Origin: Candidatus Parcubacteria bacterium
GTDB lineage: Bacteria > Patescibacteriota > Minisyncoccia > Phycocordibacterales > CAIZLB01
Direction: 5' to 3'
NCBI GenBank assembly: GCA_039795775.1
Contig: JBDKLC010000005.1
Coordinates: forward strand, 89,905-153,904
DNA: 64,000 bases
The first letter of the stretch is position 1. Every line of letters starts with the position of its first letter. Of this stretch, positions 56,555-62,149 are shown piece after piece. Under the pieces are notes generated by a model. It saw nothing but the letters and a program-made list of their open reading frames with translations, was not told the origin of the DNA and did not search any database. Made by a program: the position numbers and the translations under genes.

Positions 56555-56625
56555 TGGGGGATCGTCTAATGGTAGGACATCCGGTTTTGGTCCGGCGAAT
56601 TGGGGTTCGAGTCCCTATCCCCCAG
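56555..56625 (+). tRNA. tRNA-Gln (anticodon UUG)
   Basis: Hand-folded cloverleaf. Acceptor TGGGGGA/TCCCCCA with U1:A72, discriminator G73. D-arm GTCT/GGAC with GG in the loop. Anticodon loop TTTTGGT. T-arm TGGGG-TTCGAGT-CCCTA. No CCA encoded. Confidence 0.85.
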
Positions 56626-56631
56626 CAAAAC

Positions 56632-56668
56632 AAAAAAGCACCACTGTCAAGTGGTGCTTTTTTATTTT
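56632..56668 (+). terminator. rho-independent terminator after tRNA-Gln
   Basis: AAAAAAGCACCACT-gtca-AGTGGTGCTTTTTTATTTT. Confidence 0.85.
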
Positions 56669-56863
56669 GAGAGGATAATGAGGGGACGAGAAAGCCGGAC
56701 TGAAGTTGCGCAATGAGGAGCTTGCGACGAAGCGCAACGAGGGAGGCGGGGTCGACAGTATTTTTGCGAAGCAAAAATAACTGGTGACCGAGTCCTCATC
56801 ACTTGGCCAACCACAGCTAACACAAGTTGCGTCAAATAATTATTAACTAATAACAAAATTAAT

Positions 56864-57436
56864 ATGACAGATAAGAAGAATGATGATTTAGAAACTGTGA
56901 GGGTTATTACAGAAGCTCTTAAGTCATTTACGAAAGAAGAACGAGAACAAATAATAAGATGGAGTCTTGAAAGACTGGGGATGCAGGCTTTTAAGATTCA
57001 GTCTGCTAATGTGATGCCACAAGAGTCACCTTTGATGACATCACCACAACCATTTTTAAATTCTAGTCCGAAGAATATAAAATCTTTTGTACAAGAAAAA
57101 AATCCCAAGAGCGATGTTCAGTTTGCTGCGGTAGCTGCCTATTTTTATCGTTTTGAAGCATCAGACGGTGAAAAAAAAGAGAAAATCAGTGCAAAAGATT
57201 TGCAGGACGCTGGTCGTCAAGCTAGAGGCTTCGGATTTAAAGACGCTTTGAAGACTTTAAATAATTGTGTAAGACTTGGTTATTTTAATCGCGCAGGACG
57301 GGGTGAATTTGAATTAAATGCAGTCGGTGAGAATCTTGTAGCAATGGTACTTCCTGGGGGAATGAATGAAAGCGTCACGTCTCGAAAAATAAATACTAAA
57401 ATGAAACCAAAGATAACTAAGAAGTCTAAAAAATAG
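56864..57436 (+). CDS. hypothetical protein, first gene of tRNA-adjacent AT-rich island
   Basis: 190 aa with a basic C-terminal tail (KMKPKITKKSKK). About 37% GC. Confidence 0.5.
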   Translation: MTDKKNDDLETVRVITEALKSFTKEEREQIIRWSLERLGMQAFKIQSANVMPQESPLMTSPQPFLNSSPKNIKSFVQEKNPKSDVQFAAVAAYFYRFEASDGEKKEKISAKDLQDAGRQARGFGFKDALKTLNNCVRLGYFNRAGRGEFELNAVGENLVAMVLPGGMNESVTSRKINTKMKPKITKKSKK

Positions 57437-57440
57437 ATTT

Positions 57441-58259
57441 ATGGATACTCTGGGAATCATAGACCAGGCTATTCATGAGATTGCTCACCTTATAAAAAGT
57501 GTAAGCACTAATCGATCTGTTCAGATTAGAACTCATGATGAACAAGAATTAATAAAAGCAAATGTTTTTTCTTGGATCAAGGGACATCGTACATGTCTAC
57601 AATCATTATCTAATAATGAAATCTTAATTTCTGTTGATGAAAAATTCAGTCAACTGCTTGAGTTTTCTGATAAGCACACCAGTCGTTCACGTTATAAAAT
57701 CTTACTTAAATCCACAAAGGCCGAATTAATCAAGTTACGGTCAGAAGCAATTAAAATTGGAAATATTGCCTCAAATAAGACTGATAACTTTTCAAATTCA
57801 GCTCCAGATTTTTCACCTTTGGTTTATGACAAAAAAATGAAAACAATTTTGACGAATAGGTGGAACGAAATTACTAAATGTCTCGAGTGTGATGCGCCAC
57901 TTGCAGCAACCATTATGATGGGAGGTTTATTAGAAGCGTTATTTTTGGCGCGTGCAAATAGACTTGAGGACAAAAGCCCCCTTTATAAAGCAAAAGCTGC
58001 GCCTGTAGAAAAAAATACACGTAAAAATATACCTTTAGATAAATGGATGCTAAATTCATTTATCGAAGTTGCTGCTGAATTAGGTTGGATAAGAAAACCA
58101 GCAAAAGATCTGGGAACTATTTTACGTGATTACAGAAACTATATTCATCCAGAACGAGAATTACGTACAGGTTTTACTTTGGAAAAGGAAGATGCCTTAA
58201 TGTTTTGGCAAATATTTAATCAAGTTTCGAAGCAGATTATTATTAATGCGAATAAGTAG
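57441..58259 (+). CDS. hypothetical protein with C-terminal HEPN-like Rx6H motif (candidate RNase/abortive-infection effector)
   Basis: 272 aa. C-terminal helical region ...LGTILRDYRNYIHPERELR (R-x6-H). Tightly coupled, 4 nt after the preceding gene. Confidence 0.45.
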   Translation: MDTLGIIDQAIHEIAHLIKSVSTNRSVQIRTHDEQELIKANVFSWIKGHRTCLQSLSNNEILISVDEKFSQLLEFSDKHTSRSRYKILLKSTKAELIKLRSEAIKIGNIASNKTDNFSNSAPDFSPLVYDKKMKTILTNRWNEITKCLECDAPLAATIMMGGLLEALFLARANRLEDKSPLYKAKAAPVEKNTRKNIPLDKWMLNSFIEVAAELGWIRKPAKDLGTILRDYRNYIHPERELRTGFTLEKEDALMFWQIFNQVSKQIIINANK

Positions 58260-58362: not shown

Positions 58363-59916
58363 ATGCATATAAAAATTATCAATCTTAAAGACTTCAAGCG
58401 ATTCAATGATTTCACGATTGACCTTGGAGATTCAGCAAAAAAGATAGTTGCCCTCGTTGGTCCAAATGGTTCTGGTAAGAGCAGTGTGTTCGATGGTTTT
58501 GAGGAATTTTCAAGTCACTTCAAAGGGAGAGGAGGAAAGAAGGCCAGCTATTATGTAAAATCCATATATCAACCAGATCCGTTACCTGGTTCCCAAAACT
58601 ACGATTCGCAAACACATGTCTTTGTAACCTCTGATCAAGAACCTTCCGCATATACAAAAACAAGTTTTTATATCCGTAGTGCACATCGATTTACACCGAG
58701 ATTGGATGTGAATCAGATACAAAAACTTTCTGATGCAGAAAACGATGAGAAAAGGCCTCAATATTTAATTGATCCAGACTCTCGTCTTCAGGATAATTAC
58801 GAGCGACTGATTGGAAGATTTTATGACGATGTTTACGATAAGGAGCTTACAGGAAAGAAATGGTCGGAAGATAATATTGATGGTATCAATAAAGTTTTGA
58901 AAAAGATATTGGATATCACGGTTGTCTTCCTCGGGAATCCAGTAAAAGGAGAAGGAAGTCTATATTTTAAAAAGGGAACCTCGAGTAAATTTCCGTATGA
59001 AAACCTTTCTGCGGGAGAAAAAGAGGTAGTAGATTTAGTCTTAGACATATACGTCAAGAAGGATATTTATTCTGACAGTATAATTTGTATTGATGAGCCA
59101 GAACTGCATCTCAATACTTCAATTCAAAGAAAGCTATTGGTTGAGATTGAGAAGATTGTTCCAAATAACAGCCAGCTTTGGGTTGCAACGCATAGCATTG
59201 GTTTCTTAAGAGCACTTCAAGAGGACCTGAAAGACAAGACTGCGGTTATTGATTTCATTGGTCATAACTTCGATGAAACTGTTGTACTAAAACCTATTTC
59301 GGGAACAAGAAAAGATTGGACTAGAATATTTGAGACAGCCCTGGAAGATTTAACAGGTCTTCTTGCACCCAAAAAGATTATCTATTGTGAAGGACGACCA
59401 GATCCTTCTGCTACAGGTATGGAGCAGGGTTTGGATGCAGATGTTTATAATGAAATATTTTCACACAAATACCCTGACACCTTATTCGTATCAAGTGGCG
59501 GTGGAAATGCGATTAACAAAAGCGCTCTACTTGCTCTTAAGATCTTAAGAAAAGCATTCAATACAGTAGATCTGTATCTGCTTAGGGATAAAGATGAATT
59601 ATCAACTTCAGAACGAGATAGCTTTATTGCTGCCGACCCTTCAAACAAGATGCTTCTTCGACGTGAGCTTGAAAATTATCTCTTCGATAAAGAAATACTT
59701 AAAAAGTACTGTGTTGAGAATTCGAAGGTGTTCGACGAAGCGAAGTATGATAACAAAGTGACTTATATTAAAGAACAGGACCTGAAGCCTGTGCAGCAAG
59801 ATATTCAAGCATCGTGCCAAGAATCAGGTGATATGGCACATTTTAAAAGAGCTTTGGCGAAGTTTATATCTCAAGATACAGCAGTGTTTATCGAACTAGA
59901 ATCATTGGTATTTTAG
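58363..59916 (+). CDS. ABC-type ATPase fused to Toprim-like nuclease domain (OLD family / DUF4435-like; Gabija-GajA- or PARIS-like)
   Basis: 517 aa. Walker A VGPNGSGKSS, signature LSAGEKE, Walker B IICIDEPELHL, H-loop VATHS. C-terminal Toprim-like IIYCEGRPD (Glu) and LRDKDE (DxD). Confidence 0.7.
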   Translation: MHIKIINLKDFKRFNDFTIDLGDSAKKIVALVGPNGSGKSSVFDGFEEFSSHFKGRGGKKASYYVKSIYQPDPLPGSQNYDSQTHVFVTSDQEPSAYTKTSFYIRSAHRFTPRLDVNQIQKLSDAENDEKRPQYLIDPDSRLQDNYERLIGRFYDDVYDKELTGKKWSEDNIDGINKVLKKILDITVVFLGNPVKGEGSLYFKKGTSSKFPYENLSAGEKEVVDLVLDIYVKKDIYSDSIICIDEPELHLNTSIQRKLLVEIEKIVPNNSQLWVATHSIGFLRALQEDLKDKTAVIDFIGHNFDETVVLKPISGTRKDWTRIFETALEDLTGLLAPKKIIYCEGRPDPSATGMEQGLDADVYNEIFSHKYPDTLFVSSGGGNAINKSALLALKILRKAFNTVDLYLLRDKDELSTSERDSFIAADPSNKMLLRRELENYLFDKEILKKYCVENSKVFDEAKYDNKVTYIKEQDLKPVQQDIQASCQESGDMAHFKRALAKFISQDTAVFIELESLVF

Positions 59917-60074: not shown

Positions 60075-60575
60075 GTGTCAAAAATGCTAAAATTAAAAAA
60101 CATGATCCTAAAACCTATCTCTTCTGGCAAGCTTGTAGTTATTAGTGCTACAAAAGGTACTGACACACTTGCCTTTGCCAACGACGTATTCAGCTATATC
60201 GATCCTAACTTAAAAAATTGGGGATGCGACAAGATTGAGAAAGAAACTCCAGAAATGGCTGTTGAAGTGTATGAACAAATCGAAGACGCAACCTATCCTG
60301 AGATCTTCGGTAGTGTGGATCAAAACCTCGATCATTTAGTATTGACCACCTCGCAAATCAAGAACTTCGTGGTCAATAATGCAAAGGACTATCTTCTGGA
60401 GGCGGAATGGACATGTTTTCGTTTTCTCTTTAAGACGGGTGATGAATTTTTCATTGCAGATGTGCGAGTTCTCAACAACGGCAATCGTGATGTTCGTGTC
60501 ACTCGCTTTTTGGATGGCTCTGTCCGTCATGCAGAGTATCGCCATCGTATTGTGGTCCCACAACTAGCTGAATGA
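60075..60575 (+). CDS. hypothetical protein
   Basis: 166-aa ORF. No recognisable motifs. Confidence 0.5.
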   Translation: MSKMLKLKNMILKPISSGKLVVISATKGTDTLAFANDVFSYIDPNLKNWGCDKIEKETPEMAVEVYEQIEDATYPEIFGSVDQNLDHLVLTTSQIKNFVVNNAKDYLLEAEWTCFRFLFKTGDEFFIADVRVLNNGNRDVRVTRFLDGSVRHAEYRHRIVVPQLAE

Positions 60576-60593
60576 TTTCTTGGAATAAAGTAT

Positions 60594-61367
60594 ATGTCAT
60601 TAACTCTCCATAAAAACTGCAAATCTCTTCTTGAAGCCTTCAAATCAGGTAAGCTCGGTCAGACAGTAATGCCTGAAGATTCTAATCCTGGATTTTCTGA
60701 TAAAGATGCGGAAATGAGAATTGCATACTTTACGCTACCGATGGCTCTCAACTATCAGCGAGATAGCTACAAGCTTTGGGAAGCTGCTCTCAAGACCTTT
60801 AATGATTCTGAAACTAAGTTTGTATTTGATGTGGTCAAAGTTTCCAAAGCATCGGAAGACGATGTTCGAAAAGCTTTGATGAAATATAAGGTCGCACTTC
60901 AACCGAACAAACATATAAATACATGGAGGACAATCGCCAAGACGATAGCAAATAACTGGGGATCATTTACTAAGTTTTTTGAAGCAACACAAAATGATTT
61001 TCTGAAACTAAAGCAAATAGTAATCATTGAACACAAGAAGGGTTTCCCATATTTGTCTGGACCAAAGATATTTAATTATTGGTCTTTCATAATCAGTACT
61101 TACGGGGGTATCAAGCTAACGAATCGCGATCATATTGAAATTGCTCCTGATACTCACATCACACAGTGTTCGGTAAAGCTTGGAGTTATTACTAAAGAAG
61201 AGGCAGAGTTGCTTACTAAAGATGCTATTTCAGAACGATGGAGGGAATTGCTCAAGGAGAGCGGTATTGACCCAATTGATATGCACCCACCACTCTGGTT
61301 TTGGAGTAGAAATGGATTTGTGTTTGAAATTAATCCCTCAGAAACTCGAACCGAAAAAAGAGTATAA
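60594..61367 (+). CDS. HhH-GPD superfamily DNA glycosylase-like protein
   Basis: 257 aa. LSGPKIFNYWSFI...IEIAPDTHITQCSVKLGVI...HPPLWFW parallels EndoIII LPGVGRKTA...AVDTHVFRVSNRLGL...HHWLILHG (helix-hairpin-helix, Lys, Asp). Confidence 0.45.
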   Translation: MSLTLHKNCKSLLEAFKSGKLGQTVMPEDSNPGFSDKDAEMRIAYFTLPMALNYQRDSYKLWEAALKTFNDSETKFVFDVVKVSKASEDDVRKALMKYKVALQPNKHINTWRTIAKTIANNWGSFTKFFEATQNDFLKLKQIVIIEHKKGFPYLSGPKIFNYWSFIISTYGGIKLTNRDHIEIAPDTHITQCSVKLGVITKEEAELLTKDAISERWRELLKESGIDPIDMHPPLWFWSRNGFVFEINPSETRTEKRV

Positions 61368-61375
61368 TAACCACC

Positions 61376-62149
61376 ATGCTCGTATCCGTACTAATTCCAA
61401 CATACAACCGAAAACACATAATAGAACAAGCTATTCAAAGCGTGCTGAATCAATCATTCAGAGATTTTGAAGTAATTGTTGTTGATGATGGTTCAACTGA
61501 CGGTACAAAAGAATATATCGAGTCACTCAATCTTCCAATTACGCTCATTTCAAAAGAAAATGGCGGAGTGGCAAGTGCCAGAAATGAAGGGATAAAAAAC
61601 GCACGAGGTACATACATCGCATTCCTCGACTCAGATGATGCGTGGTTGCCAGATAAACTCAAAGCACAGGTTGAGTATTTTCAAGCGCACCCAGATATTC
61701 CGTTGGTATACACCGATGAATATATTGAAGTAAATGGTGAAGTGCTTCCAAAAACTAGATTTGAACGAGCCGATGTTGGAGATGAAGTGAAAAACAATTT
61801 CTTACTTTCTGGATTTGTACAGCGAACGCCAATTCATACATCTGCTGTCATGCTTAAAAAATCAGTACTCGACGAAGTAGGGTATTTTAATGAGACCTTA
61901 AAGATTCATGAGGACAGTGAGTTGTGGAATCGTATTAGTATGAAATACAAGTTTGGATATATTGATACTCCTTTGGCCATATTTCGATACAAAGATGGGG
62001 TAGACCATCTCATGAAAGATTTTCATTCAGAACCTTCAAAAGAAGAAGGTAGAAAGTATGTGAAGTTATACGAAGAAATGCATAAGGATGCTATGACTGA
62101 TGAAATCAAAAAAAGTATTGAAGAAAGTTATGCGATTTTAAACAAATGA
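61376..62149 (+). CDS. family 2 glycosyltransferase
   Basis: VLIPTYNRKHIIEQAIQSVLNQSFRDFEVIVVDDGSTDGT...FLDSDD (DxD) GT-A signatures. 8 nt after the previous gene. Confidence 0.85.
   Translation: MLVSVLIPTYNRKHIIEQAIQSVLNQSFRDFEVIVVDDGSTDGTKEYIESLNLPITLISKENGGVASARNEGIKNARGTYIAFLDSDDAWLPDKLKAQVEYFQAHPDIPLVYTDEYIEVNGEVLPKTRFERADVGDEVKNNFLLSGFVQRTPIHTSAVMLKKSVLDEVGYFNETLKIHEDSELWNRISMKYKFGYIDTPLAIFRYKDGVDHLMKDFHSEPSKEEGRKYVKLYEEMHKDAMTDEIKKSIEESYAILNK

Follow-up and report, generated by a model that had tools for sequence, protein, structure and literature searches.

What kind of system is formed by two adjacent genes whose relatives, across many bacterial phyla, are all annotated as 'hypothetical', and which nevertheless keep the same order and a close spacing at every informative locus? 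This question is raised by a locus in Candidatus Parcubacteria bacterium (Patescibacteriota; GenBank assembly GCA_039795775.1, contig JBDKLC010000005.1), found in a stretch of 64,000 nucleotides (nt; positions 89,905 to 153,904 of the forward strand) which is referred to here as the window and to which all coordinates below relate unless another locus is named. HEPN ribonucleases (RNases) are among the commonest effectors in prokaryotic conflict systems, and most of their families are untested. The two genes, which we call A and B, constitute an obligate, co-inherited unit, and the explanation that we regard as probable is that of a toxin-antitoxin-like or abortive-infection-like module, in which B would be a HEPN RNase effector restrained by A, a DNA-binding protein. 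The two genes are as follows.

56864..57436, forward strand: gene A, open reading frame (ORF) with an ATG start, 190 amino acids (aa)
57441..58259, forward strand: gene B, ORF with an ATG start, 272 aa

Only 4 nt separate the genes, the TAG stop codon of A being followed by ATTT and then by the ATG of B, and A begins 238 nt past a tRNA-Gln gene. The original prediction, made from the sequence alone, had described a 190-aa and a 272-aa frame lying 4 nt apart next to a tRNA, and the ORFs, the tRNA-Gln and the homologue clusters all bear this out. The GC content of A (37%) and B (34%) is below that of the window (42%). At an E-value of 1e-3 or better, homologue clusters number 456 for A (best 1e-118) and 426 for B (best 1e-130), so the two genes are not chance ORFs; none of these clusters, on either side of the pair, carries a Pfam domain, and scans of A and B with Pfam, NCBIfam, PADLOC and PHROGs returned no usable family match. 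A lone PADLOC 'HEase' match, covering residues 43-149 of B (E 8e-4), was taken as spurious. The protein database holds an identical 190-aa A (P0121, from the Candidatus Parcubacteria RL094_348 metagenome-assembled genome (MAG)); the exact 272-aa B is absent from the returns, where the best match has 77% identity, and it may be that the source annotation overlooked the gene or called it in another form.

A scan of approximately 185,600 species genomes, one genome per species, recovered B relatives in 243 species-representative genomes belonging to at least 12 phyla, with members in Patescibacteria, Planctomycetota, Acidobacteriota, Verrucomicrobiota, Pseudomonadota, Myxococcota, Chloroflexota, Armatimonadota, Nitrospirota, Bacteroidota, Spirochaetota, Omnitrophota and Actinomycetota; cultured carriers include Dyella acidisoli 4MZ03 (L044) and Bradyrhizobium zhengyangense (L053). 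Eighty of these loci were fetched and 79 were informative, the 80th being a contig that ends before the expected position of A. In 79/79 informative loci, B is directly preceded by an A homologue (E 1e-45 to 2e-82) that reads in the same direction, the spacing being estimated at -46 to +38 nt. Pairwise distances among the A proteins and among the B proteins are correlated (r = 0.74, Mantel p <= 0.001), and the nearest neighbour is identical for A and B in 41 of the 79 loci. No third conserved gene accompanies them, as no family is common to more than 6 of the 80 loci once shadow ORFs within A and B are discounted, and the search for an RNA component with Rfam finds only the tRNA. Because the pairing is universal among the informative loci, no third gene is shared and the distances co-vary, A and B form an obligate, co-inherited two-gene unit, which is patchily distributed and mobile.

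Protein B was modelled with AlphaFold2 (AF2) on a 34-sequence alignment, and the model (predicted local distance difference test (pLDDT) 87.6; predicted template modelling score (pTM) 0.68) is all-helical and consists of two domains. Its main features, with those of the motif discussed below, are listed here.

57441..57773, forward strand: B residues 1-111, N-terminal four-helix domain, helices 3-23, 32-52, 60-76 and 82-111 (AF2)
57831..58256, forward strand: B residues 131-272, HEPN-like (DUF4145-like) domain (AF2)
57933..57935, forward strand: codon of E165, acidic residue in helix-2 (MMGGLLEAL), present in 244/244 ungapped sequences
58125..58151, forward strand: LRDYRNYIHP motif region, in which RDYRNYIH is B residues 229-236 (58125-58148), from sequence and conservation

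The N-terminal domain has conserved residues at Q28, K39, A40, W45, R50, R82 and Y85; it is family-specific and likely serves as a regulatory or partner-docking surface. A low-confidence linker (residues 112-130) connects it to the C-terminal domain, which comprises helix-1 (131-149), helix-2 (153-174), a kinked helix-3 (204-233) and a kinked helix-4 (237-271) broken at 244-248, with an insert (175-203) that separates helix-2 from helix-3 and is formed by a loop that includes a short helix and a beta-bridge. HEPN domains are defined as four-helix up-down bundles made of two alpha-hairpins, with an acidic residue in helix-2, typically as Ex3[KR] (Anantharaman et al. 2013, PMC3710099). The C-terminal domain of B has this four-helix up-down topology; the helix-2/helix-3 insert, the kinked helix-4 and the position of the motif also agree with that definition, and the helix-2 acidic residue is E165, with a spacing to the basic residue of Ex5R (E165...R171) rather than Ex3[KR]. 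Structural comparison points the same way, since the only Foldseek matches of the B model with a probability above 0.4 are HEPN domains, with HepT structures among the best. At the level of sequence, the family member P0047 matches Pfam DUF4145, of the HEPN clan (E 6.5e-4, 20.2 bits; residues 144-257 aligned to positions 4-87 of the 88 in the profile), a Streptomyces plasmid protein that has diverged independently scores 19.4 bits over the homologous region, each of these two matches extending over the whole domain, and four more B relatives have weaker DUF4145 matches of about 14 bits. A PDB sequence search with full-length and domain profiles of the A and B families gave no meaningful match. 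The expectation of a HEPN-like C-terminal domain carrying RDYRNYIH in a helical region is thus upheld by the AF2 model and Foldseek; as part of the explanation set out above, which we regard as probable as a whole, the domain is read as a diverged HEPN ribonuclease domain belonging to the DUF4145-like clade.

Residue conservation was counted in 251 motif-covering sequences from the core family and from other architectures. R232 and H236 are present in 251/251 sequences and N233 in 250/251, followed by P237 (248/251), Y231 (240/251) and R229 (228/251, or 91%, with K, M, G, Q or C as replacements); elsewhere in the domain, G161 (242/243), R140 (231/235) and E143 (234/237) are nearly as constant. 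In the model, the motif sits at the end of helix-3, where the helical segment 220-233 stops before H236, so that H236 and P237 lie in the following turn. The segment R229-D-Y-R-N-Y-I-H236 reads as the Rx6H form of the HEPN motif with Asp after the Arg, and the strictly invariant core is R-N-x-x-H-P, with a spacing of 3. The prediction of a conserved Arg and His therefore held for both H236 and R229, with one correction: the Arg of Rx6H is not the invariant one, which is R232 in an Rx3H arrangement. On the model, E165 is predicted to be an auxiliary residue of the active site of the HEPN fold.

Protein A, whose AF2 model has an overall pLDDT of 72, has a composite structure of two ordered and two disordered segments.

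56876..56974, forward strand: A residues 5-37, helical hairpin with an E-x-E-R-I-x-R-W motif (AF2)
56990..57061, forward strand: A residues 43-66, disordered low-complexity linker (pLDDT < 50), variable in length and sequence (alignment A2)
57077..57346, forward strand: A residues 72-161, winged helix-turn-helix (wHTH) domain (AF2, pLDDT 88-95)
57353..57433, forward strand: A residues 164-190, disordered Lys/Arg-rich tail (pLDDT < 50)

In the hairpin, E28, R29, I30, R32 and W33 are nearly invariant and E36 is invariant; this segment is a candidate element for B binding or dimerization. The winged helix has an invariant C-terminal helix (N-x-V-G-E-N-L-V-A-M-x-L-P-G) and, in the region of the recognition helix, invariant residues T131, L132, N134 and G139; its nearest structural relatives are the MarR, PadR, DtxR and HrcA regulators, and the model identifies A as a winged-helix DNA binder. 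The last 27 residues contain nine Lys or Arg against one acidic residue, and a basic tail of this kind is found in 30/30 aligned A homologues, where it likely contributes non-specific nucleic-acid binding. The original prediction had noted the Lys-rich tail and had proposed that A is a co-transcribed partner, whether an antitoxin, a sensor or a nucleic-acid binder; the composition of the tail, together with the pI of 9.73, confirms the former, and the latter agrees with the position of A upstream of B at every informative locus and with its winged-helix fold. A Pfam scan of 30 A members found no recurring family, and A is for this reason a new family at the sequence level.

The C-terminal domain of B extends well beyond the paired genes. 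Its profile detects 3,026 representative proteins at E <= 1e-3, 1,239 at <= 1e-10 and 133 at <= 1e-30; the best-scoring proteins resemble B and are about 265 aa long, and lower down the ranking are proteins of 250-520 aa in which the domain is C-terminal behind differing N-terminal regions. Among 28 broader relatives, seven have an AbiTii N-terminal domain (Pfam E-values up to 4.3e-9, five of them above the gathering score), and all seven also match PADLOC AbiTii (best E 1.5e-11). These fusions, related to the B C-terminal domain at E of about 1e-30, carry AbiTii in place of the B N-terminal domain; further relatives that share the C-terminal domain have other N-terminal regions instead. Abi-type HEPN proteins have been described as joining a single effector domain to a variety of N-terminal regions or partner modules (Anantharaman et al. 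2013, PMC3710099), and the family of the B-type domain shows this same pattern.

Two plasmids provide further settings of HEPN-like domains. On the Paraburkholderia fungorum plasmid NZ_CP099644.1 (L013, 3554-5637), the gene of a 299-aa HEPN-like-domain protein overlaps a 395-aa PIN_12 gene (2.2e-29), both lying directly after three tandem tyrosine recombinase genes; together the two may make up a module of another kind, with two nucleases, carried on an element with a recombinase trio. On the Streptomyces chartreusis plasmid NZ_CP108842.1 (L015, 1-4417), a 280-aa HEPN-like-domain protein (DUF4145 E 1.1e-3) is encoded by a gene that overlaps the end of a 1,453-aa AAA gene and adjoins Wadjet-type TIGR02679/TIGR02680 genes, and is probably another defence-island use of the HEPN-like domain.

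Taken together, the two proteins lend themselves to a mechanism in which A would be translated just ahead of B from one transcript, would bind nucleic acid through its winged helix and Lys-rich tail, would keep B inactive by direct binding and would probably also repress the operon. The effector site of B is predicted to consist of R232, N233 and H236, with R229 in support and E165 contributed by helix-2; by analogy with other HEPN domains, it would probably be formed across a dimer interface and cut RNA independently of metal ions. Were A lost, titrated or displaced, for instance upon phage infection or another stress, B would be set free, and the freed protein would cleave cellular RNA and arrest growth. 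We infer the RNase activity and toxicity of B, its neutralization by A, the trigger and any defence phenotype of the pair.

The genomic surroundings of the pair vary between loci: among the flanking genes are a tyrosine integrase alongside a ParE toxin-antitoxin pair, an IS481 element with a resolvase and ArdC, a DUF4917 gene and GmrSD, with plain housekeeping genes alone at many loci. Even relatives with 72-77% identity have unrelated neighbourhoods. Among the 122 nearest substantial ORFs that were annotated, GmrSD occurs three times, phage integrase, resolvase/recombinase, NYN and HNH twice each, and IstB once, all others being single metabolic or housekeeping matches. In one lineage (L006, 5385-6819; L007, 1968-3402), the pair has entered a housekeeping repair cluster: uvrB and a uvrA-like gene flank A-B, and uvrC is close by. 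A phage or plasmid origin was considered and set aside, there being no phage match, only remote plasmid relatives and two partial matches in IMG/VR.

Upstream of the pair in the window, three features merit description.

56555..56626, forward strand: tRNA-Gln, anticodon TTG (ARAGORN; Rfam tRNA, 53.2 bits)
56626..56669, no strand assigned: bidirectional terminator-like hairpin, AAAAAAGCACCACT-gtca-AGTGGTGCTTTTTT (inverted repeat I3)
56759..56779, no strand assigned: perfect 9-nt palindrome, TATTTTTGC-gaa-GCAAAAATA (9+3+9), 85 nt upstream of A, from sequence

On its upstream side the insertion is bounded by the tRNA-Gln, which may be a target for integration. The hairpin (20-nt arms, 95% complementary, 4-nt loop) would, as a terminator-like structure, insulate the A-B operon from the tRNA gene, and the palindrome is a candidate operator for the winged helix of A. 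Between the tRNA terminator and A, the 194-nt spacer (56670-56863; 46% GC) also contains a GTTGCGC...GCGCAAC pair; Rfam found no match in it. At 4 of 60 other loci (L019, L030, L061 and L071) there is likewise a tRNA no more than 250 nt upstream of A, and in one of them, a Saccharibacteria MAG (L019), it is the same tRNA-Gln(ttg) as in the window. As a tRNA precedes A both in the window and at these four loci, tRNA-targeted insertion is hinted at in a subset of lineages; in the window, a search for attachment repeats of the tRNA 3' end found no convincing direct repeat within 6 kb downstream.

Downstream of B, the nearest gene encodes an ATPase.

58363-59916, forward strand: OLD/AriAB-type ABC ATPase, 517 aa, with a C-terminal extension (PADLOC, Pfam)

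This protein matches PADLOC AriAB (6.6e-29, residues 170-448) and PtuA (1.6e-21) as well as Pfam AAA_21 and AAA_15, and its gene begins 103 nt after B. The original prediction had taken this ATPase-Toprim neighbour as support for a defence or toxin role; that argument falls away, for an OLD-type ATPase was found beside A-B at none of about 90 other loci examined, including those of the relatives with 72-77% identity, and the neighbour is therefore incidental to the pair. Probably it acts alone, as an OLD/PARIS-like or Gabija-like defence gene that shares the low-GC stretch with A-B. After it (60075-61367, forward strand) come a 166-aa gene without matches and a 257-aa gene with weak AGOG (E 1.4e-3) and DUF2400 matches, whose product is possibly helix-hairpin-helix DNA glycosylase-like, and a family-2 glycosyltransferase-like ORF occupies 61376-62149.

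Several known systems resemble the pair in part. The DUF4145-like HEPN domains (PF13643) of the defence proteins RAZR/PD-T7-4, BxaP and Ishtar share with B the all-helical bundle with Arg...Asn...His at the helix-3/loop junction and the use of a C- or N-terminal effector module with variable sensor domains. The DUF4145 domain of RAZR is a proven RNase in which R146 and H154 are essential for defence (PMC13017515); its spacing is R146-x7-H154, compared with R229-x6-H236 and the invariant R232-N-x-x-H in B. The known DUF4145 defences are also single genes, whereas B has a family-specific N-terminal domain and an obligate partner gene, and the PADLOC PD-T7-4 model does not match B. Also in the DUF4145-like clade is the c2405 family, which is fused to AbiTii and retains the His without the Arg (Anantharaman et al. 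2013, PMC3710099). The relatives of the B domain that carry AbiTii recall this arrangement, although B itself has another N-terminus and the B-type domain has two conserved Arg. In the tcpC island of E. coli CFT073 (L018, 27573-28745, reverse strand), the gene C_RS11400 encodes a 390-aa 'ComEA family DNA-binding protein' (HHH_3 1.7e-9) without a Pfam AbiTii or DUF4145 match, and is probably the c2405 protein, judging from its position and its C-terminal HhH domain rather than from a locus tag. The B-domain profile does not match it in hmmsearch, and hhalign gives a probability of 0.4%; with this candidate protein undetected, c2405, although the evident candidate for a name, could not be confirmed for the B-type domain.

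Among two-gene toxin modules, the type VII system HepT-MntA includes a HEPN RNase toxin, as is predicted for A-B. The partner A is a winged-helix protein and not a minimal nucleotidyltransferase (MNT), so that AMPylation is not the expected route of neutralization; B, with its additional N-terminal domain, is twice as large as HepT and lacks Rx4HxY, and an adjacent MNT gene was not found as a third component in the 80 loci. In classical type II toxin-antitoxin systems, as in A-B, an antitoxin-like DNA binder is encoded upstream and the effector downstream, the two genes overlap or lie only a few nucleotides apart, and the module moves autonomously and is found scattered among housekeeping genes. 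The layout of A-B is theirs: co-directional, tightly spaced and always paired (79/79), with a wHTH protein encoded by the upstream gene. They differ in that both A-B proteins are larger and that the conserved core of A is folded, its variable part being the linker.

In the control of a HEPN toxin there is a likeness to the type IX retron Kva2, in which a winged-helix protein is wrapped around the HEPN toxin and is by itself enough to mitigate the toxicity (bioRxiv 10.64898/2026.07.14.738597). Both systems combine a HEPN RNase toxin, a predicted one in the case of B, with a separately encoded, winged-helix, nucleic-acid-binding protein in adjacent, tightly spaced genes. The retron, however, has a reverse transcriptase (RT) and an msr/msd non-coding RNA (ncRNA) and places the HEPN gene first, whereas A-B has neither and places the winged-helix gene first. 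The Retron-Kva2 winged-helix protein has 245 aa and two alpha-beta-beta-alpha-beta HEPN-binding domains, compared with the hairpin, linker, wHTH and basic tail of A; the Retron-Kva2 HEPN protein has no Rx4-6H, and uses H64 and R122 from different helices. Sequence similarity between the two systems is not detectable. A-B was accordingly rejected as a type IX retron itself, there being also no PADLOC retron match.

The explanation of A-B as an effector and its restraining partner has to be weighed against a number of observations that do not favour it. No sequence model reaches its curated threshold for the B of the window, which has no match in any of the four annotation libraries; its relatives, too, all remain below the DUF4145 gathering score of 23.1 bits and the B of the window gives no DUF4145 match at E <= 1, which is why we call the domain DUF4145-like and not a formal member of PF13643. 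The Arg-His spacing of the invariant residues, Rx3H (R232-N-x-x-H), falls outside the canonical Rx4-6H, and the Arg of Rx6H is replaced in 9% of the sequences. A, with its 190 aa and its folded, conserved core, does not resemble the small, labile protein that an antitoxin typically is. Nor do palindromes point clearly to an operator: those with arms of at least 9 nt occur upstream of A in 9 of 78 loci, compared with about 0.8 expected from shuffled sequences, but some of them resemble terminators of the upstream genes, and the excess, being confounded in this way, was not used as evidence. The immediate neighbours are mostly ordinary housekeeping genes, mobile or defence genes accounting for about 10%. 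Finally, none of 50,697 phage records contains A-B, the relatives found in plasmid records are remote and share the domain alone, and two partial matches are all that came from 2.9 million viral contigs (IMG/VR).

Some of these observations would be at home in a transcription-regulator complex, with A as a sequence-specific regulator and B as a non-catalytic HEPN-type co-regulator or ligand sensor, as MtlR is for mannitol genes. The structural proximity of A to the MarR, PadR, DtxR and HrcA regulators, the mostly housekeeping flanks and the non-canonical Arg-His spacing all suit such a complex, and the DUF4145-like clade does include the non-enzymatic regulator MtlR (PMC3710099). We nonetheless find it improbable: MtlR-type HEPN domains tend to lose the motif (PMC3710099), whereas the set of R232, N233, H236 and E165 is essentially invariant throughout the 251 sequences, which span several architectures, as fits a catalytic site, and no conserved target gene or regulon adjoins A-B. 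Its sparse spread (243 of approximately 185,600 species genomes) over many phyla, with differing neighbours even for close relatives, fits a mobile selfish module, and the B-type domain is also found fused to AbiTii. Far less credible still is a single PARIS-like or Gabija-like system in which the OLD-type ATPase (58363-59916) would have A and B for its accessory subunits. The three genes are indeed adjacent, on the same strand and of lowered GC, and the ATPase has the AriAB and PtuA matches given above, but the distance from B to the ATPase gene is 103 nt compared with 4 nt from A to B, and the lack of co-occurrence at the other loci, where no third family exceeds 6/80, largely refutes it.

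Two further possibilities leave B as an RNase and concern what A does. In the first, which fits all the data and to which we assign a real if minor share of the probability, A-B would be a nucleic-acid-sensing defence system, likened to a type IX retron without the RT or the multicopy single-stranded DNA (msDNA): A, whose winged helix and basic tail recall a linker histone, would sit on DNA or a specific nucleic acid and cage the HEPN site of B until a phage nuclease, DNA or protein released the RNase, so that the difference from the preferred module lies mainly in what A senses. It is weakened by the lack of an RT, an ncRNA or any other conserved third component, by a gene order reversed relative to the retron pair, by the absence from A of alpha-beta-beta-alpha-beta HEPN-binding domains, by the failure of every PADLOC retron model to match A or B and by the weak enrichment in defence islands. 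Of about the same, minor probability is a retron-independent 'caged HEPN', in which a linker-histone-like A would tether and occlude B on host or self nucleic acid, and damage specific to infection, or competition for this nucleic acid, would release the RNase. Were this last possibility true, it would amount to a new two-gene abortive-infection system, with a non-canonical catalytic core of R-N-x-x-H, spanning at least 12 phyla and including the small genomes of Patescibacteria. The toxin-antitoxin-like or abortive-infection-like module, with B restrained by A, remains the explanation that we hold probable.

The HEPN effector module is of a kind already known; what is new is the N-terminal domain of B, the obligate winged-helix partner and the non-canonical spacing of the motif. 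A-B is thus a compact, obligate two-gene module that has no name in annotation libraries and that genome and defence annotation now misses. As a minimal system free of an RT, it lends itself to asking how a HEPN nuclease comes under the control of a winged-helix protein that binds nucleic acid, and its motif variant, R-N-x-x-H-P with a second Arg, constitutes a natural test of what a HEPN active site needs. Its presence in Patescibacteria is noteworthy, as these bacteria have reduced genomes with few recognized defence or toxin-antitoxin systems.

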